A stretch of DNA of 64,000 bases, taken from positions 29,383-93,382 of the forward strand of contig JAIRWT010000014.1 of the NCBI GenBank assembly GCA_031268795.1, read 5' to 3'. The stretch's first letter is position 1. The number at the start of each line of letters is the position of its first letter. The stretch is from Puniceicoccales bacterium. GTDB lineage: Bacteria; Verrucomicrobiota; Verrucomicrobiia; Opitutales; JAIRLM01. Position numbers and translations under genes: made by a program. The notes under the pieces were generated by a model. That model had not been told where the DNA came from and did no database searches. It saw nothing but the letters and a program-made list of their open reading frames with translations. Shown here in pieces: positions 3,428 through 52,376 of this stretch.

Positions 3428-4309
3428 ATGAGGCGATTACTTCCGGGGTGCGCACTTGTGGCATTAGCTAGTTTTGCGATTTTTATGCCGGCACAGGCGG
3501 AAATTGTGAAATGTGAAAGCGTTGGCGAGGTACTCCAGCAAGTTGGCCGTTTCGGTGTAGATAAGGAAACGCTTACAATTTTTGACGTTAATTCCGTATC
3601 GATCATGCCATCGGATCCACTGTTTCACTTCCGCGCCTATACGGAGAAGCAAAAAGCAATTTACAATCAATGCTTTGCTGAGTCGCTAGCGGATCGAGGA
3701 CTTTTTTTGAGAAATCCGAGCGAGGATAACTACTACACCTACCTTGCTGTTTGGAAATTAATTAAAAAATCCGGCACTCGGTGCGTAAATGAGGGCATTT
3801 TGGCACTCAATCATGATTTCTGCAGAAAAAAAATTCCAACAATTTTTATCAGCGAATCTTTTGATGGACGATTGCTCTCCGGAAATGGGACGCCCGGAAT
3901 TGCCATGTGGCGACGCAAAAATCTAAGGAAAAGGGGTTATCAAATCTATCTTCCAGACGGGGTTAAAGACGGCACAATACGCTATCTTGAAGTCCCAAAA
4001 AATGAACTTCCCTATGAAAATTTGATGCCCTGCATCATTGATGAAGGGGTAATTAGTGCGAATCTGGTAAAAAAATCCGTCTGCCTAAAAGCATTTCTTG
4101 GCGATAAGAAATTTAAGGTGCGACGAATGGTTTTGATTGATGATAATGAGGAAGCGCTTGCAGACTTTGCAAAATTCTGTGAACGGGAGAATATTGTTTT
4201 TTTAGGGATTCATTACACGGAGGGGCTCATTTATACGTACACCCTGTCTAACGGAAAATTCCGGGGTGCATGGATGGCGCTATTTCGAAAAATCCATTTC
4301 CCCGAGTAA
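3428..4309 (+). CDS. Secreted HAD-fold-like protein (DUF2608-like by recollection), with a degenerate motif I
   Basis: Signal-peptide-like N-terminus MRRLLPGCALVALASFAIFMPAQAE. It aligns by eye with the ORF at 49888..50751: LTIFDVNSVSIMPSDP vs WVIYDIDMTLTKPENP, and MVLIDDNEEAL vs VMVDDRRHNL. The nucleophile motif DxDxT is replaced here by DVNSV. Confidence 0.5.
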   Translation: MRRLLPGCALVALASFAIFMPAQAEIVKCESVGEVLQQVGRFGVDKETLTIFDVNSVSIMPSDPLFHFRAYTEKQKAIYNQCFAESLADRGLFLRNPSEDNYYTYLAVWKLIKKSGTRCVNEGILALNHDFCRKKIPTIFISESFDGRLLSGNGTPGIAMWRRKNLRKRGYQIYLPDGVKDGTIRYLEVPKNELPYENLMPCIIDEGVISANLVKKSVCLKAFLGDKKFKVRRMVLIDDNEEALADFAKFCERENIVFLGIHYTEGLIYTYTLSNGKFRGAWMALFRKIHFPE

Positions 4310-10059: not shown

Positions 10060-12819
10060 ATGAAATTCGTGAACTCGTGGATCATGCGAGGTAAGCGTTC
10101 GGATGGCTTTGCGCTGTTGCTTGTATTGGGCATACTAGCCGTGCTTGGAGCTCTGATGCTGACCGCAGAACGGTTTGTTCGCATACAAACTTTGAGAACA
10201 CAAAATCAACTGCATGATGGCATAGCCAGGCAAAATGCATGGACGGCTCTCCGTGCCGCAATGGCCGAATTGAATGAAACCTATGACGGAGGTTGCTGCG
10301 TCACAGCACGGGCAAACATCAATGGCGAAACAATCCCCGAAGAACATTCCCTTTGGACGGGCGTTTGGAGCGTTATCGATGGCAAACCGGTTTTTAACCG
10401 CTGGTTGATTTCCCTCGCTGGCGATGCGCGTTTTCAAAGCACTGCCCCATGGGACGCCAATGCGGATGAAGTTGCCATTTTCAAAGATCTCGGCTTCGCC
10501 GATGCCTGCCCGCGGTTACCAATAATTTCAAACGAGAAGATTTCAGGACATTTTGCATATTGGGTTGAAGATGAATGCGATAAATTACGCATCAATTTGC
10601 CAACGCCTACCTTGGCATGGGACCACATCTTACAACAATTTTGCCCAAATATACTTGATCTCACTTCCGAAACGGCGCAAGCGTTGGTAAATTGCGTTTC
10701 CTTTTCGTCGATGCAGCGGTGTATGAGCGGGGAAATTAATGCCCTGTTCCATAATATAACATTGTGCAGCCGCGGGCTGTTGAAGAACACCGCCGGCGAA
10801 TGGCTAGAGGACCTGACGCTGAAATTGCAAAAATTACCACACGGCACCGGCGAGTACATTTTTTCCGGAGATCCATCCTATCCGGAGCCTCCACCCACAT
10901 TCGGACAGCTGGCGTCATTTTTCAATGCCACGAAGAATGTACATTCCTTAGGTATTCATCCCAGCGCCGCGGGTCCAAATTATCGCATTGTTTATCCGGC
11001 AACCAATGCGCTTAGCCACGGACTTGGAGATCTGCCGCAATCGGACCTTGGACTCAATATTCCAATTCAATGCGGTATTTATCCAATTCCCGTTGCTATG
11101 TTTGTGGCTGTTTCCGCAGAAGCCAATGCCAATCAGGCGAATATCCATTTGGAGCCAACAATCTTCATTTGGAATCCCTACAACGCCAATTTTGCAGCAA
11201 GCGCATATGTATTCCAATTACTTTCCGCCACTCCCAGCAACAAGGCTGGAACATTACCGGGCTTTTTAGTAGAAACCGCCGCAGGCAACACCACACTCGT
11301 CCGCCTGGGAATCAACGACGCTGGCCTCATTTTCCAGGGGGAGATTAAGACTGCATTGAATGCTGGCGAAGTGCGCGCCTTTGCCATCGATGATCAGCTC
11401 TCGCCCATAGCCATTCCGCTTAATCTACCGATGGATGTATCTACAATCACCATTCAACGGGCCAATTCAATGATTGGCGCCGTTTCCTGGTTCAACCTTT
11501 CCATGCGCCTCTTGGACGGTAATGGAAATTTACTACAGGAAATCAGTGATTTTGTTGATGGTGACGAGACTACAACCTACGTAATTCCACGGGATGGCGA
11601 ACGCCATGGGCTGTTTTGTTTTTGCGCCTGGGCAAATCTTGGGACCGGAGCGAATCAATGGCTAGCCCATTATGATCCGCGGGCGCCACAAATCCGACGC
11701 AACACATTTGAACATGCACCATTGTTTGGATTATCGGAACCTTTCCATCGCCATTTTGAGCCGTGGACGGTATATTTCTGCGATTCACCGAAAACTGGAC
11801 AATTCCCAGGATTCTTCGGGGATGGCTCCACATCGGCCATTCTATTCGATCTGCCAAGTGAATTATTTTCCATTGGCTTCCTGCAACATGTGCCTTTAAC
11901 ACCATTTTCCTACCATCCGGCGCAGGCGGTCGGTAATAGTCTTGCCTGTCCATTTATGTCCACGGATGTGCTACGATGGCATTTTATTTCACCACTGGAT
12001 CCCTGGAATAAACACGCCTATTTTCGTCAATCTATGCTCTTTGATTATTCATATTTGCTCAATGAGGCGCTTTACGACCATTATTTTGTCAGTGGTTTTA
12101 GCGGATTCCATGCCGACGAACCTCAATTTTTTACCACATGTCGACCAAGTGGGATAGGAAATAATTTTTACGACTCCACCCAAATTGCCCATAACCTTCT
12201 CCTTGAAGGAGCCTTCAATGTTAACTGCACCTCTGCGAAAACATGGAAACTGCTACTCCGGTGCATGCCCTTCGATCCAGGAACCAGGGCTTACTATTTG
12301 CCACATTTTGTGGGCCAGAGCTCCCTCGGGCCTAAATTCCAACGGCAACATCAATTGCTCGAAGATGACTTGGACCGGCTTGCCGAATGCATTGTTTCGG
12401 AAATTCAAAAATATGGGCCTTTTCCAACGTTAGGTGCATTTATTAATCGGGAATTATCCAACGGCGAACAAGCACGGGCAGGGTTGATCCAACGGGCCAT
12501 CAATATGTCCCGCATTAATTTAAATTTGGAAAGCCTTTCCCCATTGTCGGAGGACCGGCGCGAAGGATCATGGTTTAATGAGTCACTTGCCGGAGGGGCA
12601 ACCAATGCGCACGCGCCCGCCTTTGTAACGCAGGCGGATTTCTTACAGTTTTTTGGCAATCAGTTAATCGTCCGCTCGGATACCTTTTCCATCCGTGGCT
12701 ATGGAGATTCCGTAAGTCCAATTGACGGCACGGTATTCGCCAGAGCCATTTGTGAAGCGATTGTCCAGCGTATGGCCGATGGGCAACTGCAAATGCGATG
12801 TTTCCGGTGGATTCAATAG
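10060..12819 (+). CDS. Very large pseudopilin-like protein (GspK-like N-terminus)
   Basis: N-terminus MRGKRSDG|FALLLVLGILAVLGALMLTAERFVRIQTLRTQNQ...ARQNAWTALRAAMAEL follows the GspK/minor-pseudopilin pattern: basic leader, Gly-Phe, a hydrophobic helix with no Glu at +5, then R..T.N...A. The remaining ~850 aa is unrecognised. Confidence 0.4.
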   Translation: MKFVNSWIMRGKRSDGFALLLVLGILAVLGALMLTAERFVRIQTLRTQNQLHDGIARQNAWTALRAAMAELNETYDGGCCVTARANINGETIPEEHSLWTGVWSVIDGKPVFNRWLISLAGDARFQSTAPWDANADEVAIFKDLGFADACPRLPIISNEKISGHFAYWVEDECDKLRINLPTPTLAWDHILQQFCPNILDLTSETAQALVNCVSFSSMQRCMSGEINALFHNITLCSRGLLKNTAGEWLEDLTLKLQKLPHGTGEYIFSGDPSYPEPPPTFGQLASFFNATKNVHSLGIHPSAAGPNYRIVYPATNALSHGLGDLPQSDLGLNIPIQCGIYPIPVAMFVAVSAEANANQANIHLEPTIFIWNPYNANFAASAYVFQLLSATPSNKAGTLPGFLVETAAGNTTLVRLGINDAGLIFQGEIKTALNAGEVRAFAIDDQLSPIAIPLNLPMDVSTITIQRANSMIGAVSWFNLSMRLLDGNGNLLQEISDFVDGDETTTYVIPRDGERHGLFCFCAWANLGTGANQWLAHYDPRAPQIRRNTFEHAPLFGLSEPFHRHFEPWTVYFCDSPKTGQFPGFFGDGSTSAILFDLPSELFSIGFLQHVPLTPFSYHPAQAVGNSLACPFMSTDVLRWHFISPLDPWNKHAYFRQSMLFDYSYLLNEALYDHYFVSGFSGFHADEPQFFTTCRPSGIGNNFYDSTQIAHNLLLEGAFNVNCTSAKTWKLLLRCMPFDPGTRAYYLPHFVGQSSLGPKFQRQHQLLEDDLDRLAECIVSEIQKYGPFPTLGAFINRELSNGEQARAGLIQRAINMSRINLNLESLSPLSEDRREGSWFNESLAGGATNAHAPAFVTQADFLQFFGNQLIVRSDTFSIRGYGDSVSPIDGTVFARAICEAIVQRMADGQLQMRCFRWIQ

Positions 12820-12903: not shown

Positions 12904-13422
12904 ATGTCGGTTAGTATGCATCCGGGCGGGCCGCGTCCTGAGAGCCATCAGGCCTTCCCAGAGCCTGCCCAATCGGGAAAGCGGGCGGATACTTCGGCTG
13001 CGCAAAAAGATACCTCGTTCAAAACTTCACCGGAAGATTTCCAGGAAAATTTGGAAGATTCGACCGATGCGGGCGATACGGCCAGTGAACCAACCGCTAC
13101 CGACACTTCCGGCGAAAGCGCTAAAGCCACATCAGTTTCCGAAGCTGACAAGATAGTGGAAGAAAATGTGGAGACGTCTGACGGCGTGGATGCAGAAAAT
13201 CTGGTTGCCGCGGAAAAATCCCATGTCAGCACTTCGGTTGCGGGAGAGGTCGCGGAAGTCGACGTCAATTCGGAATATGATACCGAAGAAGAAGAGAACG
13301 AAGGTGGCGACGAAGTGGCTGACGAAGAGATGCGCATGGAAGAAAATTGCTGTGCGCCGGAGGAAGTTCCGCAGGAATTGGTTGGTGAGTACAACGATGG
13401 AAATCTTATCTTTAAAGTTTAA
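12904..13422 (+). CDS. Hypothetical highly acidic, low-complexity protein
   Basis: 172-aa E/D/S/T-rich ORF filling the gap between two same-strand genes. No recognisable motif. An antisense ORF (12948..13394) of similar length exists, so even the strand is uncertain. Confidence 0.35.
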   Translation: MSVSMHPGGPRPESHQAFPEPAQSGKRADTSAAQKDTSFKTSPEDFQENLEDSTDAGDTASEPTATDTSGESAKATSVSEADKIVEENVETSDGVDAENLVAAEKSHVSTSVAGEVAEVDVNSEYDTEEEENEGGDEVADEEMRMEENCCAPEEVPQELVGEYNDGNLIFKV

Positions 13423-13432
13423 TGGAGGGAAA

Positions 13433-15940
13433 ATGACAACAAAAGGTTTGGCGTCGGTCCGCACGACGCAGTGCAAAAATCCGCTTATTCCAGGACATCT
13501 TTCCTGGAGGGTTGATCAGGCGAAGGAACGCATCGTCAAGCACTTGGAAAGTAGGCTTGCCCGGGAGCCGCAAAGTGCCGTAACTCATGACTGGTTTCTG
13601 GCGAATGCCTACGCATTGCGCGATCGCATACTGGAGCGATTCATTAAAACGCAGTCGGCGCAGCATACGGCCAATTGTCGGCGCGTATACTATATGTCCA
13701 TGGAATATCTGATGGGTAGATTGCTGCGGGACAATCTCAATAATTGCCAGATGTTTGAGCTCAATGAAAAAGCGGTGCGCGAACTTGGTCTTAAATTTGA
13801 TACCATTGAGGAACAGGAGGCTGATATGGGTCTTGGTAATGGTGGCCTTGGTCGACTTGCCGCTTGTATCATGGATTCGCTATCCACATTAAATTATCCG
13901 GCGGTAGGGTATGGCATACATTATGAATTTGGTATGTTTCGCCAGGAATTTGATCAGTGCCAGCAAAAGGAATTGGCTGATAATTGGTTACTCCACGGAA
14001 ATCCATGGCAAATCAGCCGGCCGGAAAATATGCAAACCATCCCCATTTATGGGCATTTGGAAGATCACGTGGACGAGTCCGGTACCCATCGGGAAAAATG
14101 GGCCGGCTATTCCACATTGCGCGGTATTCCATGGGATATTCCCGTCGTTGGCTATGGGGCGCAAACGGTTAATTTTTTACGCCTCTGGGAGGCGCGTGCA
14201 TCGGACGAATTTGATCTTAATCAGTTCAATGCTGGTAATTTTTTAGAGGCGGTGGAAAAAAAGGCGGAAAGCGAAACCGTTTCCCGCGTTCTCTATCCAA
14301 ATGACTCCAGTGATTCCGGAAAAAAATTGCGCCTAGTGCAGCAGTATTTTTTTGCCGCCTGCTCCCTGTTGGATATCATTCGCCGCCACTTCAATGGGAA
14401 TAACACCTGGGACAATTTTAGTGAAAAAGTATGCATTCAACTCAATGACACCCATCCAACCATTGCCGTCGCCGAATTGATGCGCATTCTTTTGGATGAT
14501 AACGGTCTTCCCTGGGAAAAGGCGTGGGACATCACATCCCATGTTTTCAATTATACGAATCATACGCTGCTGCCTGAGGCACTTGAAAAATGGAGTGTGC
14601 CATTGTTTGAATTTGTTCTTCCTCGCCATCTGCGCATTATTTACGAGATCAATGAGCATTTTTTGAAAACGGAGGTCCAGGAACGTTATCCCAATGATGC
14701 GGAAAAGCTCAAAGCGCTTTCCATCATTGAGGAGGGTCCGACAAAATTTGTGCGTATGGCAAATCTAGCTGTTATCGGCAGTGAATCGGTCAATGGGGTC
14801 GCCGAAATGCATTCCCAGCTCGTGAAAAGCTCTTTGTTTCCGCATTTTGCCCAGCTTTTCCCGCAAAAATTCAAAAATGTGACAAATGGCGTTACCCCGC
14901 GCCGATGGATCAATTCTGCCAATCCGCGCCTTGCTGAGTTGCTTAACAAAACCATCGGTCCCGAGTGGATTATCGACCTCAGTCGTTTGCGAAGCCTGGA
15001 ACCGTATGCCAATGATCTTGCCTTCCGTAATGAATTTGCTCGCATTAAACTCCAAAATAAAAATGCCCTGGCTGCGTATATTAAAATCAGGTGTGGCATT
15101 GATATTAGTTCTGAGGCCATCTTCGATTCGCAAGTTAAACGCATTCACGAATACAAACGTCAGCACCTTAAATTACTACATATTTTGTCCCTTTACCACC
15201 GCCTGCTAAATGACCCGAAATTGGAATTTCCACCGCGTGTTTTTATCTTCGCCGGAAAGGCTGCGCCCGGTTATTTTATGGCCAAAACCATCATTCATGC
15301 CATTAATCTGGTGGCCAACCACATTAACAATGATTCGCGTATCGGGAATCGTATCAAGGTAGCTTTTATTCCAAATTACGATGTCAGCTCGGCTATGAAA
15401 ATTATTCCCGCTACGGACCTTTCGGAGCAGATTTCAACGGCTGGAACGGAGGCTTCTGGAACGGGCAATATGAAGTTTGCCATGAATGGCGCATTGACCA
15501 TTGGCACTTTGGACGGTGCCAATGTGGAAATTCTCGAGCAAGTTGGAGATGGTAATATTTTTATTTTTGGACACACCGCTTCCCAACTGGACCAGCTCCG
15601 GCCAATCTATGATCCACGCGATTTTTATCAAAAAGATGATGAATTGAGGCACATTTTGGACTGGATGCGATCGGATTTATTCGAACAAAACAATGGACTC
15701 AACCCCCTGCGGAGGATCGCAGAAAGTCTTTTAAACGAAGGAGATCGTTTCTTCATCCTTGCGGACTATCGCAAGTACATGGCCGCACAGGATCTAGTTT
15801 CCGAAGCATACCTCAATCAGGAATTGTGGTACTCCATGGCGATTTTAAATGTGGCACGCATGGGTAAATTTTCCAGTGACCGTACCGTGCAGGAATACGC
15901 CACCAACATATGGCAACTTAATGGAATTACCATAGACTAA
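13433..15940 (+). CDS. glgP: Glycogen/maltodextrin phosphorylase
   Basis: PLP-site signature EASGTGNMKFAMNGALTIGTLDGANVE, plus GLGNGGLGRLAAC. The ATG at 13433 is preceded by GGAGGGA (13424-13430). The track ORF extends upstream to 13166, but that extension overlaps the acidic ORF and has no phosphorylase-like sequence. Confidence 0.93.
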   Translation: MTTKGLASVRTTQCKNPLIPGHLSWRVDQAKERIVKHLESRLAREPQSAVTHDWFLANAYALRDRILERFIKTQSAQHTANCRRVYYMSMEYLMGRLLRDNLNNCQMFELNEKAVRELGLKFDTIEEQEADMGLGNGGLGRLAACIMDSLSTLNYPAVGYGIHYEFGMFRQEFDQCQQKELADNWLLHGNPWQISRPENMQTIPIYGHLEDHVDESGTHREKWAGYSTLRGIPWDIPVVGYGAQTVNFLRLWEARASDEFDLNQFNAGNFLEAVEKKAESETVSRVLYPNDSSDSGKKLRLVQQYFFAACSLLDIIRRHFNGNNTWDNFSEKVCIQLNDTHPTIAVAELMRILLDDNGLPWEKAWDITSHVFNYTNHTLLPEALEKWSVPLFEFVLPRHLRIIYEINEHFLKTEVQERYPNDAEKLKALSIIEEGPTKFVRMANLAVIGSESVNGVAEMHSQLVKSSLFPHFAQLFPQKFKNVTNGVTPRRWINSANPRLAELLNKTIGPEWIIDLSRLRSLEPYANDLAFRNEFARIKLQNKNALAAYIKIRCGIDISSEAIFDSQVKRIHEYKRQHLKLLHILSLYHRLLNDPKLEFPPRVFIFAGKAAPGYFMAKTIIHAINLVANHINNDSRIGNRIKVAFIPNYDVSSAMKIIPATDLSEQISTAGTEASGTGNMKFAMNGALTIGTLDGANVEILEQVGDGNIFIFGHTASQLDQLRPIYDPRDFYQKDDELRHILDWMRSDLFEQNNGLNPLRRIAESLLNEGDRFFILADYRKYMAAQDLVSEAYLNQELWYSMAILNVARMGKFSSDRTVQEYATNIWQLNGITID

Positions 15941-15970: not shown

Positions 15971-18900
15971 CTATGCGGAAGCCTTTGGTACTGCGTCAGA
16001 ATCGGTATCCAACTCTTCAAGCCTAGCAATCCCAGCCCTTGTGTGTCGCATGAATGTTGTAAAATCATCTTTCGCGATAGAGGCTGCTTTCCCAAACCAA
16101 TCAACTGCTCCTTTAAAATCATCAAATTTTGCAACACTCTCCGTTGCGTCATCGGATGCCATAGTAAATTGAATGAGGGGTTCCTCTGATTTGGGATTTA
16201 TTGCATCGGGGGGCGGTTCGGACGCTTTTTCGACGCACAGCTGAAGAAGTGGCAAGAAATTGCTGCCATCTTTTCTTAACTCCTGAACTATGCGCCTTTT
16301 TATATATCCAAGCTCACTACGCTGTAAAAATGGTATGGCCAATAATTCGTCAAAAGCTGAGTCTCGAACGCTGAAAATTAGTGGAAATCCACCGAGAACG
16401 ACAACAAGCATCCAGGCGAGGAGTGCTTGCGTTTTCCTAAAAAAGCTAAATGACGCCTGCAATGAGGCAATTGTCGCGTTACGTGTAGCAACTTCTGCGG
16501 AAATGCGCTCATAATCCCTATTGAACAAACTTTCAAGTGCGACATATGCATGATTTAAGATTTGCGAAACATTCTCATTTTCGCAAGTCCGTTTGCATTT
16601 TTCAGTTGCGCGCATCAACGCACCGTGAACCATATCTTGCAAGCCATCAAGACGCACGTCATTAGGATTGAAATCAACGCCACGAATTTCCTTTTCGAAG
16701 TATGCAATAAGCTCATCTTGCGCCTCCGCACGCTCTGGGGGTGTCAAGTCGTAACTATCACTTTTCGCATAGGCAAATATTCTTATCGCGTCCGCAACGC
16801 AGAGGATTACGTTGTCAAGAAACGCTGTTGCATTCATCTTTAGTTGCGTTTCCATTGCTTTAATTATCTGCGACGCTATTGATCCAGCTGCATCATCTTT
16901 TTCCATTGCCTCAAGGGAAAGGAATGTCTCAGCGGCGAGATGTATTTTATCACAAAATCGATCTATTTCTTCTGGATTGAATGGGCGACCCGAAATTATC
17001 ATCTCATAGATTAAAATTTGTTTTGTTTCAAGCTGCGACAATTCGATATCATCAGGGTAATATGCACAAAATCTCACAAAAACATCGCCCGGCAAACTAT
17101 TCAATACGGGCCCAGGAATTTTCCTTACAGTGTCTCGAGGCATTTTATCGAGACAATCTGACTGTACCATAATGGATACAAGTGAAGCGACATCATTTGG
17201 ATTCGGTGTCGTACTAACGGTTGCTACACATGTTTCGGCAAATGACAGCTTAGCCATTCCGCTTGGTCCGGATGTGGATTCATCTTCCGTAAAGAGGCGA
17301 CAGATCGCAGTTTCTTCGGATTCATCCAACTCTGGCAAGCCGTTCCTGCGTCGAAGCTGATTTGCTGCTGCAATCAAATATACGTAAGCCGATATTGCCG
17401 CTGGAGTGAATTCGCCGGGTTTTGCGTCTTTCATAAACCTATCCCTATACCATTTCGCAGGAATGCGATCATAATATCCAAAGAAAAAATAGGCGTCAAA
17501 AAGTTCCTCTCCCTTGTGCGGTAATGAACCTGGATTACCAAATAACACCGTACCGGTGCTGCTAAAAAGTACAGGCATTCCAGGCTTCCACGAATGCGCA
17601 TTTTTCATGTAAGAGGAAGCCTCCATACTATCTACTACGCAAGCATTTCCATTGCAATCAACTGCAACATATTTCGGCAATCCAACATGGTCAAATGGAA
17701 ATATTTCACATCTTTGCATGAAAGGTTGGATGTAATTTTTAGATACGTATAAGTTTATGAGATCAAATGGATTTGGGTTGCCCCCATCATCGCTTGAAAA
17801 TTTGATCATGTGACTGCCGACGCGAATCATATGCTCGCGATTAGCGATAAATCCTTCCGCCAAATCATAGTTAACCTTTTGTCGCGTTTCGAAACCCTCG
17901 CATGAGGTTTGAGTTGTGTTCACTTGACACATGGTAGACTGTTGTTGCATTTGGTTCTGATTTTGGTTTTGCTGTGTGACTTGTAGAACTTCGGTCTCTA
18001 CAAAATTCTCCACCGTTTGCTCTAGCTGCGCACCGGAACCTTCAGGGCCATTAGCCCCCGCAGCGAATGAAACATCTGAAAATCTTTCACATACTTCTTT
18101 TGCGTATATATGATACTTGCCTCCCTTATCGGAGGCGTTGGCTGGTGGGCGCATTACCGCTTCGTAGGCTTTCTTTATTTCGGCAAGGCATGGTAGATCA
18201 ACGTTATCATCCAAGGCTCGTTGGAAAAGTTCTCTCTGTCTATTCAAACTAGCGAGGAGGATTTCACTTCCGCGAACAAGATGGGCTCTAAATTCATTTT
18301 CAACAACCGGATCAATTCCCATTTGTGTAGTAAAAAGATGATCAAAAATTTGTCTTACATCCATTGCCTCTTCAAAAGACAGGTGCAATATGCCATCGGC
18401 AATTATCCCTTTAAATATATCTTTTTGTTCATTAATGGCTGCTTGAAACCTTAAGGCTTTATTATTTTCCCCCTCATTTCTGGCCGAAAGTTTGAGAACT
18501 CCAACAAATTTGTCTGCAGGAGACGCATCAGCAAGCGCAAAAATAGCTTTTGCCTGTGGACAGTTCGTTACGGCGATGGATGCCGTTTGGCCGACAAGGA
18601 ACTGACGCAGCCGCATCACTGCCTGTGCTAATTCCTCGGGTGTATTCGTACCAGTATTTAGCGTCACAATTGCGCCGGCATTTGGAATAAATTGAGCATC
18701 AGTTCCCGTGGAAAGCCTCTCGGAATAATATGCCGCACATGCATCCGGAACAAGTCCTGCGGCGCGCAAATCATCCGAAGTGATACCTTGAAGCGGTTTA
18801 TTGTTTGCACCGTGACCGCGAATATCATACGCCATAAATCCGCCTCCACCTGGATCCTCATAGGTTATCCAGTCGATTATATTGACTCCGTTGTCGGACA

Positions 18901-21900
18901 ACGCCTCGGCGTATTGATCTAAAATTTCATTTATTTTTTTTACCTTAAAAACGCCACCCCTATCTACTATAATACGAACGAATTTGCGTTGTGCCGGTGG
19001 AACAGACGCAAAAAGATCTTTCACGTCGGGCTCTTTGCCGGAATCCGGAAGAATGTCGATCCCGGCCACACCACGCGTTAAATCATCGAGTTCTTTTAAG
19101 AAGATTTGTCCCTCAACGCCGGCCTGTTGTTTGACGCCAGTGTCGTCACGCGCGCCACGAGGAAGTCCATGGACATCGGATATTGTTCCGCTACAGAACA
19201 TCGTGTGTTCACCGAATAATCTAACAGCGCTGTTACACCCATCCGTATGCATCGATTTGTGGTAGCGATTGCTGCGTCCGCTAAATGCCTGCCATAGCGC
19301 TATCCGCGCGTCGGGATTTTCTTCTAAATGCTTGTTTATTCCAGCCAAACAAGATTGATATTCGGAAGGGCGTGAGTCACGTTCCCTTAAACATTTTGTG
19401 ACCTCATGGTATTGACGACCAATAATACTCCTATATACTTTGCTTGGAGACCCTTCTTCATCAGATGGACCTTTTGACATTGTTTCTTTCACGATTGGCG
19501 TCCTCATCCGTTCGGTGAATGCTTCAATCATTTTCTCTGTGAACGGCGTGAAATATTCTTCCATGTCAATGAGTGCTTGTATGTAGTAATTGACTAATTT
19601 TTCCTGCAAACTTGCGAAGTCATTAGTCGATGGTGTCATGGAGGCAATATAAGGAACCATTACTGGATCGTCGCCGAGTGCACGTACGTGAAGTCCCATC
19701 TTACGATTTACTTCATCATGGCGGGCCGATTCAAATCGTCTTGTTACCGCAACCCACGTACAAATGCGCCTAAGAGCGGCGCGATCATCATCGTTGCCAC
19801 TTTCCCCTACGGCTACGATGAGCGGGTGGGCATCACTTTCTCCGATTAGGATATCAATAAATGTTCCAAGGTTAACATTGAACTTATTGAGAAAAACGTG
19901 CACGGGCATACCTGGCATTATTTCGCATGTCGCAAGGTATTGTGCCAAAGTTCGCCGATCGCGCACAAAATCCTCGTCCGAACGCTGGGCTTGTGAGTTA
20001 TTGGCAAATCCGAAGAGCCCACCGGTAGCTGACGGATTTGCGCGATTATATGCCGCTATTGCCTTGAAAATACTGGCCACATCGCCATTCAGTTCCTCTG
20101 GAACTGCTAGTTGGATACCTGAAGGATAATTAACTTCTTGTCTTGCGCTTAAGTTTATGTGTGCCTCGTCAAAAATTCCATATCCATGCTCTTGGAAAAA
20201 TTTTTTTATCCTAACTAAATAATCAAATCTCTCCTTAAGTGTTTCCACGTCTTTGTATTCTTCCAGTTTCTCTTCTATGCGTTCGAGTCTTTTGCGCTTT
20301 TCTGCAAGCTTCTGCCTAAGATTGTGAGTAAGTTCGGCTTGAAATCCCGCCTCCTGTTCGGAGGCTTGCCAAATCGCATCCATTTGTCTGACGATTTCAT
20401 TTATCTCATTCGCGGTTGTAGCTGCTTCTGCAAGCAACTCGGCAGTTGCAGTTCTGGCCGCGATTGCGTCCATTATCTCTAATTCAAGCTTAGAAAAAAA
20501 GTTCGTTTCGCAACAAAGTATTCCGCCATTAGTCATAGCGTCAATCAGGGAACTCAACATATTGCTTAGGTACCCAACACTTTGAAGTTCCACCCGTGTG
20601 GGATTAATTGTCATGACGGGTTGTCCAAATTTTTTCTCGGATGCATTCCAGAATGCTTGTGCCTGGAGAAATTGGGTACTATCGCAAGCGATAGTCGGTA
20701 AATATCCCTGTAAGCTACACCAAAACGTGAGAACAAGAGAGATTACCGATGATTTTCCACCTCCCATCATTAGTTTGAAGCAACGGTAATCTCCGTCCAT
20801 CAAACAGCGCAGTATTCGTGCCTGTATTTTACTAATAATGAAGCCCTGGGCCATGGCAAAACACAACATGCAATCCTCGGAAATATGTTTTCCTAAACAA
20901 TCCTCGATATATCCACCACTGTCGGAACAAAACTCACACATTTCACTGGTGAGCCGATGTATATTTTCAAAAGCCGAAGTTCTTTCGGACTCACAACTGT
21001 CCGGATTCGTCAAAACTTTAGCATGTTTTTCTATGTCAAAACATCTACGTTCTGTCACGCACGCTACGGCATACATTCGAATGAGGTTAGTCGTATAGTG
21101 ATAACTTGCTTCGGATAGCAGGAATTGCGGGCAAAACTTTGTCGGCCCAATGCGATACATGCCGTTCACTATATTTGGTTGTACTACAAGAATTGCCCTT
21201 GCCACTGCCTGCATATCGAGGTCTCCGTGGTTAGTTTCCCCGATTTTTAATGCCGTTTCTCGCAAAAGATCACGTTTTCTCCTGGTAACCTCATCGCGTA
21301 ACTCTCGCACAGCTTTGAAATAATTCAAATGTTCACTTGTAACTTCGAGAGTTGGCGGAACAAAAACTTCTCTGTCGGCAAAACACCTGGCTCCGGCGCG
21401 CATTTCTTCAGTCATTCGATCATGAGCACATTGGATGGCCGGATCGGCATCTGTTGCGATAATTTCAACTGATCTTACCGAGTGTGTGCGCCCGAATCGC
21501 GTAGAGATTTGCGCGAAAGGTCTCCCAACAAAATGCACAAATGCAGTGAATTGATCAGATTTTGGAACTTTCGGCCCAACTGCAGGGTTGCCAGCGCGCT
21601 CTGCCCGGACTGACGGCCATTCAGCAGTGCGGGCAGTATTCAACACTTTACCCCAACTGTTTAACCCCTTCCATTCGAGCTTAATTTTTCCTGCGAACAT
21701 TAGGGTTGCGGCAGGAGAGCCTTGCATCTCCGGGTACTCCACAAGCAAAGCGGGAACCTTCTCGAGCATGGAAATAGCTTGCTCCTTCGAGAGAGATAAA
21801 TTCGCTACAAGCCTCCATTGAAATCTACTATCTCCGACGCAAACTGAAAGGCTTGTTAAGCATGAATGCACGCAATGCGCAATAGCTGGCATGTCGCCCG

Positions 21901-24900
21901 CGGCTGCTTTTACACCTTGAAAATTCACACGGGGTAATTCTTCGAATATATATTTCCTAATGGTTGATTCGTCTTTTTCTATAGATCTCCATAAATCAAG
22001 TGCAAAAAACTTTATTGCCGTAGCGTCTGGACTTCGGTCGCGGATACTAAATACGAGTTCAGCAAAGCATCGACGAACATAATCTCCAGCTGCATTATTT
22101 GGCAAAAAAACTCCCTTTCGTACTTCGTTTAACGCAATTGCCGCCTGGTCATATTTTCGCAATAAAAGTAGCGAATGTGCTACAGTTATACGTTGTAAAA
22201 TCCGGCTAATCGCATCATTTGCATCAACAAGATGAAGATTTCCTTCTTGACAGGAAACCGTGAAAAGTTCCTGCACTCCATCCCGAAGCGGCGCAGCTCT
22301 CAACCCGTAGGCGGTAAATGCGGACAAATCACGCATACTCCTTTTTTTGGGTAGAAAATCAAGTGCGTCTTTAGCGGGATAGGTATGAGTATTTGCGGTT
22401 TGTTCATGAACTGGCGACAATAAACATAGCACCGGAAGGCTCCCCGTACTTGGCGGGTTAATCGGGATGAGCGTAATGACGGCCGTAGACGCCAAAGGAT
22501 ATGTTTCACGGGCAAATCCACCATCGCCTGCGTGTGTCGTTTGGGCCAGACTCATTATATCTTTGGTTGTTGCGATGCGATAATTATCAATTCCAATAAT
22601 TTCCCACTCGTCATTAGCATTTTTCCTCATTCGCAGCGGGTGCCCATTCAAAACAACATCCGGGAGCATAACTTCCCGAATTTTAACTTCTGCGTCTTCG
22701 GCGGGCACCTCATCGAAGATGCAGATGCAATCTTTATTTTCTAGTCCCGGCAATGCAATGCCCATGCTTCTCGCCTTTGCAATATGCGCCGGGAGGCGAC
22801 GGTCACTTCCTTCAAGAAAAAATGCCTGAGTTTTCCCTTGGTTGCTAACTTCCACTTCGAAACTTGCGCATTTGGATGACTCGCGCCCTGTATAAAGTTT
22901 ATAGACGCTGGACCCTCCGATACTTTTCTTTCCCCAGGCAATACCACGTTTTAAGAGTTTGCACCTAGCATCATGCTCGGAAATGTCTTTGTAGAGCTTA
23001 TCAAGCCTATAAAAAATCTCTCCTTCTCCGTTCGTGGCACGAACAACCCCTTCGGAATCACGAATGAGGTGGATATCCTCTCCCGCATATGTCCCGTCCG
23101 CAGGCGTGAATATTGTTTGTCCATTAAATTCCTGGACCGCAACCTGGGATCGCTCATTAAGTTTTAGAAAAGCCATAAGGGCATTTGCATCATCTGGAGG
23201 CATTGCTGCAAGAACTTCAGGTAGCATTTTTTTTGCATTGTTACAGATAACCCCTGCACCCTCGTTCCATCCTCTGGAAAAAGAAAAAATTTCAGTACCA
23301 TCGCGGCCGAAAATACTGGCCGCCGACGGATCAACCGTATATTGTCCCCTGTCATCCTTGGGGTACTCATACGGGCCCTCTTTCTGCCTTTCTTGAAATT
23401 TTCTAACATCCGTCGTGGCTGGCTGTCGTACTCTTGCACTAAAATCAATTGCTCCGGTAATAAGGCGAGCGACCAGTGGATCTGTTGGATGTTGCGTAAT
23501 TATTTGACGCAAATGATCAATGGCATAATCGGCACATTCCCAACCATACACGCGATCACTACTAGCTATGAATGATCGACGCTGCAAATTTCCATCGGGA
23601 GTTTTTTCAAACAGCATTATCGCAGAAAGACCATCGGTGACTACTTCCTGATATTCATACAAACATTCTTGTTTGCTGCGTATATCATTCTCGGTTAGAC
23701 CGAATCGTACGGCAACTTCGGAAATTTGCGCCGTCGCCTCCGCAAGGATCGAATTTCCCCTTTTGGTGGTAACATCTGTATTATCTTTATTTACAAGAAG
23801 AGCCCGCCGTATCTGCCGCGATAAGAGGAGGGCGCCTTGCAGCACGCATTCTCTGCCATCGATGGATTCAACTGCCTTGGCCCCAACCATATGCATGACT
23901 GCGCTAATAACAGTGGCAATATTACTAAATACCTCGACGTCTGCATCGCTATACGTTCGTACGAGCGGATTATCCTCGTTTGCAATAAGTACTTTTCCGA
24001 GCGTATCAGTAACAAGCGAGTTGCACTGATTCAAAATACGGGCATAATCAGCGAGAGTTGCATTACCTAGCGCTTTTTGCCTGAATGAATCATTGGCAAT
24101 AAATGATAAAAGTGCATTGGTTGTAGTTCTGCCGCGATCTTTCATTTTTTTGAAAAGATGAGTGCTATCAGCAATTTTCGCCAAGATTGCAGTTATCGAT
24201 TCGGGAGGATGTTGAGTGTTTATCATATGTTCGGCACTAAAATATTCCATGAACCCACTGGAAGCGGACTGGGTTCTGAGTTTTTCATTGGCGGTTGTTC
24301 TCCCGGCAATCGTATCAGGATTTTGCAGAAAAAGATCTGTGCTTCTATCCGCTGAAGCATATGTTGCAGTATGGTCTATTTTTGGTGTTTGGGACATTGC
24401 GGTCGACGGAGTATCGACGTAGCTCTTCGGAGAAAGTCCTTCGCCATGTTGGCCTGGAGTATCTCTTTCTTGTGGCTGCGCATGATGCTTTGAAGCACCA
24501 GAGGATCTTTGATTTATTTCGGCGAATATAGAGACTATCTGTGGAAAATCGCCAAGTCCGCACGCATCCATTGGAGTTACATTTGCAACAAATCTTTTTC
24601 GAAATTCGGTATCGAGCATATGTAACCTATGGCCAATACTATCGGGGGTGCCCAGGATAGCACCAAGCCCACGCGTAAAGTCCACGCGAGCCTTCTCCGT
24701 GATCTGTCCGATTTTTGGGGCGATATCGGATAAATGTGTGTCGCGTCCAACTAAATCTTCAAGTCCTGCCCTTTGATCAAAAACACCCTGCAAAATTCGA
24801 AGATTTAAATCTCGTGGCGCGGCAGAGTCGGATGCGACTATTTGACGAATTTCTGCATCCAATGTAGCGAAATCCGTTCCTGCAATTTTGCTTTTCCTGT

Positions 24901-27900
24901 CCTCAATTGTAAAATCAAAATTGCCAGTCTTCGAAAAATCATCATCGGGCCAAAACGACATATTGCTAGTATATCGAAGGTTTGCAACGTTTATCAACGC
25001 TGATGCGCCGTTGCCGAGTCCGGCAAGTTCGGGAAGAGGAATCCCTTGGCGTATTTCCTCTTGCAGAGCCTGTATCTCGGCTGAAAATTCATTTTTGGTA
25101 GGGTTGAGCCTTATATTATCAGGCGTTCGAACCTGTGCTTCTAATGCGGAAACATACATATCAGCGACGTTAGTTAAGGCATTAATTGTCGTGTTCGAAT
25201 TAGTGCAGTTAATAAGCTTGCACTGAATGTCGGCAGCTGCCTTTCGGCGAAGTGCAAATACCATATAAGTCTCGACCCAACGTTGCAGCTTTTTCTGAAG
25301 AGCCTGCCCGCTTGCCGAGGTCACATCCTCCCATTTGTCAACCGTATCTTTAACAGCGCTAAGCCTCTTCAGAAGGCTTTCCAAATATTGCTTTCTTTTA
25401 TCAAGGGCTAGGATAAAGGCTTCCATGTTAGTCACACTATTTTGAGCGGCCGTATGGGCATTTCGACGGGCGGTTTCGTCATCTATTAACTTGCAATATA
25501 TTGCATTAATTCTATCGTATTCGGCATTCGCGGAAGCAGCAGCCGTCTTCAATGGGTTGCGCTTTTTGTCGATTTCAGTGTCTGAAGCGGTTTCAGGAAG
25601 CGAGCCTCCCGTTAACCCAAGCTGGTGCTTTATTTCGCCTACTTCTTGTTTGATGGCGGCTACCTTCTTTTGCAAGGAGTCAATTCCGTCTTTGGCGGTA
25701 GTTTCTTTATTTCGCAAATCTGCAAGCTCGCTAGTCTTTTTGGTTAAAGCGTTTTCCGCTTTGGCAGCTTTGTTGAGCGCAGCTGTAGCGGAAGTAGCTG
25801 CTTTTGTCTCCGCTGCCAGACAAGCCTCATATTCCTGCCGCGCCGCGGGATTGGCTGATTTCGCTGCCGCGCTCAACTTTCTGTATGCTTCAGCAGTTTT
25901 CTTTTTTGCCGCATCCGCTTCTCTATTCGCGATATCAGCCTTGGCTTTTGCTTGGTTGAACGTCGATTGCAATACGGCAATCTCGGCAAGCAATGTAGGC
26001 TGACGATCTTTCACGGCTTTTAATTCAGCAGTGTAATCCTTAATGCGCGCATCGCACCTACCAAACTCCTGCTCCCGTGCCCTTAAGCGGGAAATGGCAT
26101 TTTCAAACTCCTGCAAGTTTTGGGCTGCCCTTTCCTTGTTCGTTATCGCCGGATAATATTCATCTTTTTCACATCTGCTTCTAGCCTCAATGGCATCTTC
26201 TAACTCTTTTTTAGCCTTCCCTACAACTTTCTTAAGCCTTGCAAATTCTCCTTCTCTATTGGCTTTTTCGGTCTCGATATTTGCAAGCTCACGTTTAATC
26301 GCTTCAATGGCATCGTTCAATTCTCGCTGTTTTCCTTTTTTTACATCTGCACGACTAAGCGTTTCTTTTATTTTCTTTATCTCATCCAATGCGGTCCGCA
26401 TGCCATCGGCGGAGGCTTTGATACTTTGCAAAACTTCATTGCACGCAGCTTTATATGCAGTATAACTCTGATTGGGGCCATTCAGTATGGAGGCGAAGCT
26501 TGCTTCTACGGGGGCGAAAGCTTCGCGAGAAACCTTCGGAGCATTTAACAGAATTCCAGGCTTCTCAGAACTCGCACTCAAGGCGGCCAATTTTTGCCTC
26601 CGCACACTATTCTGTTCCGAAGTGTTGTGGTCAGATCCAGGGTTTATTGGCGGAATTTCTAAGCCAAAAATATTCGGATTAACCTCAACGTAATATACAA
26701 GATCGCGCTTTATGGCAGTCTGGCGCATTTGGCACAAGTGCCGAAACGCAAGCATGGATATAACTTCAAGGGTCAAAAAAACATTTTGATCCTCAACCGA
26801 TTGCCTCAATTGAGGTGCTGGATAATGGGAGGATAAGAAAATGCTTACATTTTTAAGCTGCTGAAGCAAACGGATCGAATCTTTCTCGCTATAGGTCTCA
26901 AGGTGGGTAGGGAGCTCGTCCAATGGCAAATTTGGATGCTGTATGAGGAACTTAATGGCATCGGCAACGATTTCGTTCTGCCCCTTATCGCTAAAATCAG
27001 GGACGACATCAAATTTTTCAAATACTGCCTTAATTTTCTGCAAGGCCGCCTTGTCATTAACTGGGCACTCCCGCAGCGCAGCTGCCGCAGCATCAATGGA
27101 ATCGCAAGAATCGCTAAGCGGACTACTTCCGGGTGGACGTGGCGCTTGATCTCCTGAATCTAAGTCTGGAGTTGGAGGCAAAAATAACGATAGATCGAGC
27201 GGCTTGCCTCTATCAGGCTCAAAAGCACCTTCGCCTTTGGCGAAAACGGTATTTTGAAGCGCCTCCATAACAATTCTTCGCATTTCCCGCAACTCGAAAT
27301 CAATTCTACGTACTGTTTCATCGGAGTGAATGAGGTGTCGCAAATTTGCAAAATCTTGCGCAAGCACATTCAGTTGCGCGGCAATTGCATTTACCTCAGC
27401 AAAAGTCGATGCTGCTCCGCCGTCGACCAAAAGACTAGAAATTAAATCCCTGAGCATCCGTAGGGATACGTAAAAATGCAGCAAGTTAATTTGTATTTCC
27501 AAATCATCCGCTCTATCGCCAATGCCTGCATTGGATAAAATAAGATCACGAACCAATGCTTCCAATGACCGCCCCGTACAATTTCCGGTTGTTTGCATTT
27601 CGTCAAGAACCGTTGCGCCGCACACAGTGCCTAGCCTTCCGATAATGAAGCCATCTTTCCTCCCGTTCACAACGTCGACGTCGGTAATGTTTTCTGGCGA
27701 AAGGGCAGCCGGCAGCCCGTCTTCGCTGCCAACTCCTGCGATTTCGGTGGGTACCGTCGCCTCGGTGTCATCAGTACACAAGCAGGGGATTTTGCCGGTA
27801 GAGCATCCCTCCAGGAATTGATTTGCACATGCCTTGCTAACTACCCCCTTTCCGAGAATATAAAAAGATTGCAACAGCCTTTGCGTGTCCTCGGAGGATA

Positions 27901-50828: not shown

Positions 50829-52376
50829 TCATGTTTCAAAAACCGGGAAATATTTTGCCCCCATAAACATCTCTCCATTCACAGCTCCATTCAGCTTCCA
50901 TTGCGCAAGCATGTTTTCCATCTTTTCATTTGCGACTACGGTAACATTGGCATCATCAAATTTGCGCCATTGTCCATTGCTGCATTTGATGTAAGTAAAC
51001 CAGTGGCCCGCCATCTCGGTGCCTGTATGGCAAGAAATTTGCCCAAGTTCATAATATTCCGCCACCGGATTAACTACCGCATTTGCCGGTAAATGTATAC
51101 GCTTCTCGATTTGAACACCATATGCATTTAGCCTTCCGGCAGCATTGACCGATGTACGCTCAGCGGTAAATGTGATACATGCTGGATGAATTAACTTGCG
51201 GAATAGATCATATGGAATATATGCACTTCTGTCGTCATTGTAATATGATGAATCGTCTGCAATTACATGGTGCGGTGCCAAGAATCGCTCTAAAGTTTCC
51301 TGGCAACTACAATTACTACTCGCAAAATTAAGATGTATCCCATGTGTATATATTTCGCAAGGTGCGCTATGAAGCGTTTTCCCATCTTCTCTTCTGTCTT
51401 CGCATGTGATATATGGAAGAAAAATAAAAAAACTTTTCTCAATTCGCGCAAACCAGTCCCCCAAATTTTGCCCATTCTCGGGTGGAATATGCAAACATTC
51501 TAAGGTCGCTGATTCCGCTTCCGAGAGCGGTCTTTCTGCGTCACTGATACGCTTTACAAAAGGCACAAAAGTATCATCTCGGTAAAAATCATTTGATAGT
51601 TCATCAAGAAAGTAAAACGTGAAATCTCGCGAATCATGCAGCGCACCAGCAAAAATAATGTCGCATCTTCCATCAATTAATTTCAATAATGCATAAACTC
51701 TTTCAGGTACAGAGGCCGGCGGGCCTAATTGCATACAGCGCATTATTTCAAATGTCGCAAATATTACCGGATGGACTTGCTCGACATCGGGAGTTAACTT
51801 CACGATCAGGTAAATTAGGGTTCTAAAATGTGGCATTTGAAAAAGCGACTGCAATGCAGTGCTTGCAAAGCAAAATGAACTAGGATTCGGAATGCCGATA
51901 TTTATCCATGGAACAGTTGTCACGTCAATGTCTTTAAATTTCGTTCCAAAGGCTTCACCAAGTGCCGCTGGAACTGAGGATGCAGACGCTAATCCAGATG
52001 AAATTAATGGTGCCGATTCCGGCTGCTCACCTTTCGCAACAACCTTTCCCGGCGATATTTTTTTCTCAGGAACCCGTGCAAAAATATGATAAATGATCAT
52101 TCCCGCGCCACAGGCAAAACAAACACCAAAACAAGCCAAAATAGGCAGTGCCAACGGGATCAACACCGGCATCGTAATAATTTCAAGCGCAACCAATCCA
52201 CTAAAAATTATACCTGCAGTGCTACCCGCGCAAAAGATACAGCCCAAAATTACATGGTCCAAAAGCATCTGCAATGTAACCCTGGTGCCAATCCTGCCCA
52301 ACGGTTGATGATTTGTGGCGCCCAAACTAGTTGTGCGACGACTTTCTTCACTCGCCGCCCGTGCCGGAATACCCAT
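50829..52376 (-). CDS. USP-type (peptidase C19-like) ubiquitin-protease-like protein with an N-terminal double hydrophobic hairpin
   Basis: Cys box GIPNPSSFCFASTALQ (C169, nt 51870-51872) has the same spacing as the USP Cys-box pattern G-x-x(1,3)-x-x-x-C-[FYW]-x-[NST]-x-x-[LIVMS]-Q. His box YELGQISCHTGTEMAGHW (H458, nt 51003-51005) compares with Y-x-L-x-x-x-x(2)-H-x-G-x(4,5)-G-H-Y. It is followed by WRKFDDANV. Hydrophobic aa 41-99 (nt 52080-52256) are split by TMP. Confidence 0.75.
   Translation of the reverse strand: MGIPARAASEESRRTTSLGATNHQPLGRIGTRVTLQMLLDHVILGCIFCAGSTAGIIFSGLVALEIITMPVLIPLALPILACFGVCFACGAGMIIYHIFARVPEKKISPGKVVAKGEQPESAPLISSGLASASSVPAALGEAFGTKFKDIDVTTVPWINIGIPNPSSFCFASTALQSLFQMPHFRTLIYLIVKLTPDVEQVHPVIFATFEIMRCMQLGPPASVPERVYALLKLIDGRCDIIFAGALHDSRDFTFYFLDELSNDFYRDDTFVPFVKRISDAERPLSEAESATLECLHIPPENGQNLGDWFARIEKSFFIFLPYITCEDRREDGKTLHSAPCEIYTHGIHLNFASSNCSCQETLERFLAPHHVIADDSSYYNDDRSAYIPYDLFRKLIHPACITFTAERTSVNAAGRLNAYGVQIEKRIHLPANAVVNPVAEYYELGQISCHTGTEMAGHWFTYIKCSNGQWRKFDDANVTVVANEKMENMLAQWKLNGAVNGEMFMGAKYFPVFET

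Follow-up and report, generated by a model that had tools for sequence, protein, structure and literature searches.

A conserved head domain with a putative papain-like active site on a giant DUF3638 protein from a Puniceicoccales bacterium

The DUF3638 giants are proteins of 2500-4100 amino acids (aa) whose function is undescribed, and among 7.7 million full-text papers searched DUF3638 comes up in five, each time in passing. One of them is encoded in a stretch of 64,000 nucleotides from a Puniceicoccales bacterium (NCBI GenBank assembly GCA_031268795.1, contig JAIRWT010000014.1, positions 29,383 to 93,382 of the forward strand), and this whole stretch is called the window here. The protein begins with a head of about 375 aa, and the locus raises the question of whether this head is an enzyme and, if so, of which kind. 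The original prediction was made from the letters of the segment 27464-28363, which is the 5' end of the giant open reading frame (ORF) 15971..28363 (-). It pointed to a possible His / Asn / Gln-x4-Cys arrangement in the order used by CE-clan peptidases. Our data suggest, with a probability of about 0.6, that the head is a conserved domain of enzyme-like character, with a papain-like active site whose residues come in His-first order, and hence a putative thiol hydrolase. The catalytic roles of the four residues, the meeting of three of their side chains and the class of substrate are what we infer from this pattern. The parts of the head on which the argument depends are the following.

15971..28363, (-) strand: giant ORF of 4130 aa, from translation; identical to NCBI MDR1457147.1 of a Puniceicoccales bacterium metagenome-assembled genome (MAG)
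27239..28363, (-) strand: head domain, about aa 1-375, from AlphaFold2 (AF2) models; no Pfam family and no PDB sequence match
28028..28039, (-) strand: GGHA motif, aa 109-112; G110, H111 and A112 invariant in four bacterial homologues
28049-28051, (-) strand: H105, context TWHGS, from a codon check
28031-28033, (-) strand: H111, context GGHAVYGRI, from a codon check
27968-27970, (-) strand: N132, context HIYNLG, from a codon check
27956..27970, (-) strand: N132-x-G134-x-G136, invariant in six of six sequences
27593-27595, (-) strand: Q257, context MQTTGNC, from a codon check
27578-27580, (-) strand: C262, context MQTTGNC, from a codon check
27551..27595, (-) strand: Gln/Cys motif QTTGNCTGRSLEALV, aa 257-271; Q257, G260 and C262 invariant in six of six sequences
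27620..27784, (-) strand: variable insert, aa 194-248, from alignment gaps; predicted local confidence (pLDDT) below 50 at aa 199-235

Translation of the window bore out the codons and contexts quoted for H111, H105 and N132, and those of Q257 and C262 in MQTTGNCTGRSLEAL. A phmmer search of 1.84 billion representatives with aa 1-420 returned, besides MDR1457147.1 itself, just three full-length homologues of 4037-4119 aa with 31-34% identity. Two of the three come from NCBI-named Puniceicoccales MAGs and the third is an IMG record; for two of the homologues there are also longer gene models. A word-index protein search with the head, and another with the ATPase region, gave no match and was uninformative, as the protein's own cluster representative was also missed, and the same kind of search with a giant-virus DUF3638 segment gave two fragments only. 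Looking up the exact sequence of the giant returned no record either. The alignment of the four bacterial homologues (A1) has 42 invariant columns among about 400 in the head, and H111, N132, Q257 and C262 belong to them. The invariant columns form three islands, namely G110-H111-A112, N132-x-G134-x-G136 and Q257-x-x-G260-N261-C262-x3-S266-L267-x-A269-x-V271. The alternative His that had been proposed, H105, is not conserved among the homologues. C98, which lies in a 'DGC' that looks OTU-like by eye, was considered as a catalytic Cys and rejected because it is not conserved, and C149 is invariant among the bacterial sequences only. No family was assigned to the head by Pfam or NCBIfam, searches of the head and of its profiles A1 and A4 against PDB sequences by phmmer and hmmsearch gave chance matches only, and no description of the domain turned up in the literature searched.

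A wider comparison came from giant viruses. Their DUF3638 proteins were fetched from IMG/VR by a P-loop DNA pattern alone (MGEGK[ST]SVI), independently of the head, and two complete ORFs were recovered from giant-virus MAGs, L121 (3036 aa) and L123 (2577 aa). Pfam DUF3638 matched both (E 7.9e-6 and 8.6e-10, respectively), with the curated cut-off passed by L123 only, and L121 also has a weak DUF3645 match. About 1200-1500 residues upstream of the P-loop both carry the four-residue signature, as T-H226-A, N246-T-G-A-G and Q352-T-M-G-N-C357 in L121 and as G-H355-L, N375-S-G-Q-G and Q455-K-S-G-S-C460 in L123. The giant-virus proteins thus resemble the window protein in having the H/N/Q/C head first and the DUF3638 P-loop far downstream, with an identical, colinear signature. 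They differ in being shorter (2577-3036 aa) and in lacking its C-terminal transmembrane-like segment, and their heads share only 15-19% identity with the bacterial ones. Like the window head, they are uncharacterised and have no Pfam family. Neither the full alignment nor the L121 head brought up anything new in a search of viral contigs.

When the four bacterial and two giant-virus sequences were aligned in two ways, the sole invariant columns were H111, N132, G134, G136, Q257, G260 and C262. The arrangement of the original prediction is real and is the most conserved feature of the head. The distance from His to Asn is 19-21 residues in all homologues and 21 in the window protein. From Asn to Cys it is 130 in the window protein versus 85-111 in the homologues, and none of the homologues has so long a variable insert. 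The composite pattern H-x(15-30)-NxGxG-x(50-170)-QxxG[NS]C had no other occurrence in 430,335 aa of six-frame ORFs, and it arose in one of 14,000 shuffles of the headed proteins. Because of the invariant columns and these controls, the four-residue arrangement is far from a chance motif. The best-supported conclusion assigns the head to a giant-virus and Puniceicoccales subgroup of DUF3638 proteins, as their conserved N-terminal module. The subgroup is defined here by H-x(19-21)-NxGxG-x(85-130)-QxxG[NS]C N-terminal to DUF3638, and the window protein fits this definition. The head is not an add-on peculiar to the window protein. The active-site hypothesis covers the giant-virus and bacterial subgroup and is testable there.

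The fold of the head was predicted with AF2 for aa 1-400 of the window protein, from a four-sequence alignment (pLDDT 66, predicted TM-score (pTM) 0.65), and for a trimmed homologue core of 292 aa (pLDDT 78, pTM 0.80). The topology is the same in both models. N-terminal helices (4-94) are followed by strands 98-106, 109-119, 126-135 and 146-155 and by helices 157-189; after the variable insert come helix 258-277 and then helices 285-371. H111 lies near the start of strand 109-119 and N132 near the end of strand 126-135, while C262 is at the N-terminus of helix 258-277, with Q257 just before it. In the models, this placement of His, Asn and Cys fits a CE-type active site as described for AnkH and XopD (PMC6712400). 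The long distance from N132 to C262 had been regarded as a misfit in the original prediction. The gap is real, at 130 residues, and is accounted for by two conserved helices and the variable, low-confidence insert.

Searches with the two models gave different results in the PDB. For the window head model, the top five Foldseek chains were all Legionella LegA15/AnkD (E 0.016-0.1, probability 0.85-0.98), with about 300-350 aligned columns and a TM-score of only about 0.3, and all other matches had a probability of 0.15 or less. For the homologue core model no PDB match was significant, and three CE-type folds appeared weakly, namely SENP8 (2BKQ) at E 0.77, HopZ1a at E 3 and RavZ at E 5. The AnkH structure 6MCA was absent among the matches listed for either head model. 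Against predicted viral structures, the core model clearly matched N-terminal fragments of giant-virus DUF3638 proteins. The best was Hokovirus A0A1V0SFG7_1 (E 2.1e-6, probability 1.0, TMq 0.54), followed by two Hyperionvirus proteins and a second Hokovirus DUF3638 protein, and a Fadolivirus protein named 'ubiquitinyl hydrolase 1' (A0A7D3V923) also matched at E 2e-3.

Of the characterised proteins, the head looks most like two CE-related effector domains, the cysteine-protease-like domains of AnkH (LegA3) from Legionella pneumophila and of Legionella LegA15, which share its His-first order. The AnkH family is described by the motifs 'rGHa', 'D/NRg' and 'GNCSWANV' (PMC6712400). About 100 AnkH orthologues were retrieved from Legionellales and Coxiellaceae genomes by the last motif, among them AnkH itself (L056, matching 6MCA), and their consensus reads ...GHAitf..., ...cDRg... 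and Q-i-x-G-N-C-S-W-A-N-V-e-A. The heads have counterparts in the same order: GGHA, then N[L/R]G (NRG in the homologue P0007), then Q-t-x-G-N-C-t-a-a-S-L-e-A, where the match after Cys is partial. Local hhalign comparison of the Cys motif with AnkH 'QisGNCSWANVEA' gave P 4e-4 to 1.6e-3, and that of the GHA motif gave P 0.011. A global hhalign alignment of the head with AnkH was meaningless and was set aside, the local ones stopping at the motifs. In each of the four giants the best match of the AnkH hidden Markov model is the GNC motif, with a per-sequence E of 3e-4 to 0.06. Like AnkH, the head has the order His, Asp/Asn, Gln, Cys, identical Gln-x4-Cys spacing and helices after the Cys helix. 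Unlike AnkH, it has no ankyrin repeats (no Ank Pfam match), its third residue is Asn and not Asp, its Asn-to-Cys segment is 85-130 residues versus 66, its hairpin is 19-21 versus 15, and it sits on a 4130-aa giant whereas AnkH is a 467-aa effector. AnkH and LegA15 themselves have no similarity detectable by phmmer. The spacing from His to the third residue is 22 in LegA15, 20 in XopD and 15 in AnkH (PMC9757750, PMC6712400). Statistically, a link of the head to AnkH and LegA15 is weak and no more than suggestive.

LegA15 also brings in a different chemistry. It has a proposed triad, H268-N290-C361, with Q356, C361 and T362 conserved, and it is reported as a GTPase that needs C361, R291, K/R367 and R408, while H268A has little effect (PMC9757750). 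By analogy, the head could be a nucleotide hydrolase that binds GTP and uses C262 to activate water for attack on the gamma-phosphate, and not a protease at all. Besides LegA15 being the top PDB match of the window head model (PDB 7KJ6, 7EW8 and 7XQL), the two share Q-x4-C-T (Q356...C361-T362 in LegA15; PMC9757750) and nearly the same His-to-Asn spacing (21 in the window head, 22 in LegA15). However, the fold match was not reproduced with the homologue core model. Unlike LegA15, which has ankyrin repeats, the head has none, and with the motifs brought into register no conserved residue of the heads takes the place of R291, K/R367 or R408. The residues in place of R291 (Asn+1) are L/L/L/R/T/S and those in place of K/R367 (Cys+6) are E/E/Q/E/I/I in the six heads. 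Furthermore, His is invariant in the heads, yet it is dispensable for the reported LegA15 activity. We consider a GTPase head very unlikely. Since His is invariant and the LegA15 GTPase residues lack a conserved counterpart, the constraint pattern would be easier to reconcile with a thiol hydrolase or transferase of Cys-His-Asn type than with the GTPase mechanism of LegA15. The chemistry of AnkH and LegA15 is disputed between protease and GTPase, and the fact that the head family keeps His, Asn, Gln and Cys and not the GTPase residues bears on what the ancestral chemistry was.

The relation to clan CE itself is partial. The head resembles Ulp1/SENP (C48), XopD, adenain (C5), YopJ (C55) and the ChlaDUB-type enzymes in catalytic order and in predicted secondary-structure placement, and to this extent the CE-type reading of the original prediction stands. 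Its Asn-to-Cys segment is much longer than theirs. In Ulp1/SENP a Trp directly follows the catalytic His, and in Ulp1 and adenain the Gln-Cys spacing is x5-x6, compared with x4 in the head. The prediction had noted this shorter spacing as a misfit to Ulp1; x4 is the spacing of AnkH (QISGNC) and LegA15 (Q356...C361), which accounts for it.

Several observations weigh against a thiol hydrolase of this kind. Neither Pfam nor Foldseek against the PDB matched the head significantly to any canonical CE peptidase. The Foldseek search was the check on AlphaFold models of the head that had been proposed together with the CE-clan idea, and its CE-type matches had E 0.77-5. LegA15 was missed in the search with the trimmed homologue model, which has the higher confidence and had no significant PDB match. 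The models rest on four sequences, and the loop preceding C262 has low confidence. The hhalign probabilities for the Cys motif are only 16-36%, with alignment confined to short motifs. The residue after His in the window head is Ala and not the Trp of Ulp/SENP, which argues against a canonical ULP. LegA15 is reported as a Cys-dependent GTPase (PMC9757750), and AnkH showed no protease activity in vitro (PMC6712400), which calls for caution about protease activity in the head. The head therefore resembles the AnkH, LegA15 and CE-type sites in its presumed working and is not filed in any of these families.

In the NlpC/P60, LRAT and PPPDE families His comes before Cys and an 'NC' motif lies at the N-terminus of a helix. 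The head might be a permuted papain-fold enzyme of this lineage, of acyltransferase, phospholipase or deSUMOylase type, and not of CE/AnkH type; it shows the same linear order as well as the G-N-C motif, its His and a polar residue lying on successive strands and its Cys on a C-terminal helix. No LRAT, NlpC/P60 or PPPDE structure or Pfam family came up in any search, though, and the weak fold matches that did appear (SENP8, HopZ1a and RavZ) are CE-type. Furthermore, about 90 residues of helices precede the sheet and Gln is at position -5, as in AnkH/LegA15 and the CE enzymes, so that we give a permuted enzyme a slim chance.

The finding that the AnkH pocket is closed and that the protein is inactive as a protease in vitro (PMC6712400) raises the question of whether the head is catalytic at all. 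The four residues could be structural, bind a ligand or metal, or be a dead site kept as a binding pocket, and the low model confidence just before C262 leaves space for this. But pseudo-enzymes usually lose their catalytic residues, whereas here residues of catalytic type are the only ones to persist, apart from three Gly, at 15-19% identity between bacteria and giant viruses. One His and one Cys do not make a metal site, and C149 could add to them in the bacterial sequences only. A purely non-catalytic role seems improbable.

If the head is a papain-like thiol hydrolase, its site may work as follows. C262, at the N-terminus of helix 258-277, would be the nucleophile, and H111, at the start of strand 109-119, would act as general base. 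The His would be oriented by N132 from the end of strand 126-135, the antiparallel neighbour of 109-119, and Q257, five residues before the Cys, would contribute to the oxyanion hole. G134, G136 and G260 may keep the cleft open, and the variable insert aa 194-248 is a likely specificity element. The head is the ancestral N-terminal module of the DUF3638 superfamily 2 (SF2)-like ATPase subgroup found in Klosneuvirinae-type giant viruses and four Puniceicoccales MAGs. The bacterial protein has, besides the head, the ATPase, a long coiled coil and a transmembrane-like anchor at the C-terminal end. The most likely role of the head would be that of a thiol hydrolase (or transferase) whose substrate is linked to a host protein.

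As for the substrate, a role as a ubiquitin (Ub) or ubiquitin-like protein (UBL) isopeptidase is our leading guess. A Ub/UBL substrate is plausible because of the genomic setting, with a ubiquitin-specific protease (USP) and an OTU-like protein nearby. The 515-aa ORF at 50829..52376 (-) encodes a eukaryote-type USP domain (Pfam UCH PF00443, E 1e-13) on a bacterial chromosome. The 853-aa ORF at 57063..59624 (-) matches the OTU-like cysteine protease family PF02338 weakly and with a score under the curated cutoff (E 5e-4, aa 641-666), and it may be a second deubiquitinase-like protein.

The head might instead have the giant protein as its target, cutting it in cis or in trans and so releasing or activating its modules, without acting on a host substrate. 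This is a sub-case of the thiol hydrolase reading, with the same chemistry and another substrate. Large multi-domain toxins and viral polyproteins often have an internal or terminal Cys protease for autoprocessing. In addition, the head is kept in the giants of giant viruses, where a host-directed effector is not obviously needed, and no conserved partner gene adjoins the giant gene. No conserved candidate cleavage site was identified, however, and we regard self-processing as unlikely.

The rest of the giant protein places the putative thiol hydrolase head on an ATPase. The features downstream of the head are as follows.

25274..26446, (-) strand: coiled coil, about aa 640-1030; weak SMC/Rad50/LmuB/JetC-type matches only
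20372..20866, (-) strand: DUF3638 P-loop domain, aa 2500-2664; Pfam PF12340, E 2.3e-8, 34.1 bits versus a cutoff of 31
20744-20764, (-) strand: Walker A, GGGKSSV, aa 2534-2540, by motif position
20159-20170, (-) strand: DEAH, aa 2732-2735, after a coiled-coil insert downstream of Walker A, by motif position
18602..18709, (-) strand: TGTDAQF ... MRLRQ, aa 3219-3254; invariant in four bacterial homologues
16367..16423, (-) strand: single hydrophobic transmembrane-like segment LLAWMLVVVLGGFPLIFSV, aa 3981-3999, from a Kyte-Doolittle scan

The ATPase had been described as DUF3638/3645-like in the original prediction. The DUF3638 part holds, with a score above the gathering threshold, whereas DUF3645 was not detected by Pfam in the window protein or its bacterial homologues, and nor was DUF6606. 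The ATPase region found no match among PDB sequences, and PADLOC matched the giant only at coiled coils. The most conserved part of the giant is aa 3001-3300 (45-56% identity among the bacterial giants), and TGTDAQF and MRLRQ may correspond to SF2 helicase motifs V and VI. Inside the ATPase core there is also a conserved M-[HQ]-T-D-[GN]-C at aa 3038-3043 (in the window 19247..19264 (-), aa 3034-3039), with C-[ST]-G-T nearby. It was considered as a second thiol-protease site and rejected, since it sits in the helicase-like core beside SGT and is more likely a part of that core. The transmembrane-like segment lies about 130 residues from the C-terminus of the giant. By the Kyte-Doolittle scan all four bacterial giants have it at the corresponding position and none of the giant-virus homologues has it. 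It suggests a tail-anchor-like membrane attachment.

DUF3638 giants of fungal type, recognised by the P-loop QLNMGEGKSSVIVP, were fetched from metagenomes for comparison (L128, L213 and about 100 other loci, L128-L247). They belong to the same DUF3638 ATPase family as the window giant and are of comparable size (about 3000 aa). Their N-terminal module, however, is Pfam DUF6606 (E 1e-57 to 1e-63), and they carry DUF6606 together with DUF3645, whereas the window head has no DUF6606 match. The H/N/Q/C signature was found in none of the fungal-type DUF3638 loci screened. The N-terminal module of DUF3638 giants has apparently been swapped between lineages.

The head-plus-ATPase architecture is common to Klosneuvirinae-type giant viruses and to Verrucomicrobiota MAGs that encode USP and OTU-like proteins. 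Because the same architecture occurs in both, gene exchange inside a shared eukaryotic host is suggested, and the enzymes may form a new class, directed at the host or related to conflict. In a broader and much more speculative picture, which we put forward as a possibility on the doubtful side, the H/N/Q/C head and DUF6606 would be interchangeable effector heads on ancient giant SF2-type ATPases of eukaryotes, giant viruses and eukaryote-associated bacteria. The version found in Puniceicoccales and giant viruses would be an ATP-driven, coiled-coil-extended thiol hydrolase, membrane-anchored in bacteria. It would represent a new family of cysteine peptidases that has passed horizontally between giant viruses and the bacterial symbionts of protists. 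A deubiquitinase or UBL protease that works processively or is gated mechanically would be one example.

The neighbours of the giant ORF are ordinary chromosomal genes (glycogen phosphorylase, LpxA, FabH, PlsX, NusA, IF-2 and GyrA). No operon partner is conserved, the homologue P0003 being located amid unrelated housekeeping genes. A 919-aa ORF at 10060..12819 (+) has no Pfam match; about 3 kb, in which the glycogen phosphorylase gene (13166..15940) lies, separate it from the giant gene's 3' end. A 293-aa ORF at 3428..4309 (+) matches the uncharacterised family DUF2608 (E 1.2e-8).

Two further observations concern the head sequence. A 941-aa protein (P0005) matched head aa 68-144 at E 6e-5, but it consists of nine tandem repeats of an SDG-rich unit (approximately 'SWTHPSSLSDNISPDGQ.AY.PQVAVS.DGSLAVI.WRQSDGS.NQIFKS') and the match was judged a compositional or repeat artefact. 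Near the N-terminus, at aa 13-26 (28286..28327 (-) in the window), there is a motif Q-F-[FY]-P-x7-E-G-A, in which Q13, P16, E24, G25 and A26 are invariant in the four bacterial homologues when the longer gene models are used; it was not seen in the giant-virus heads.

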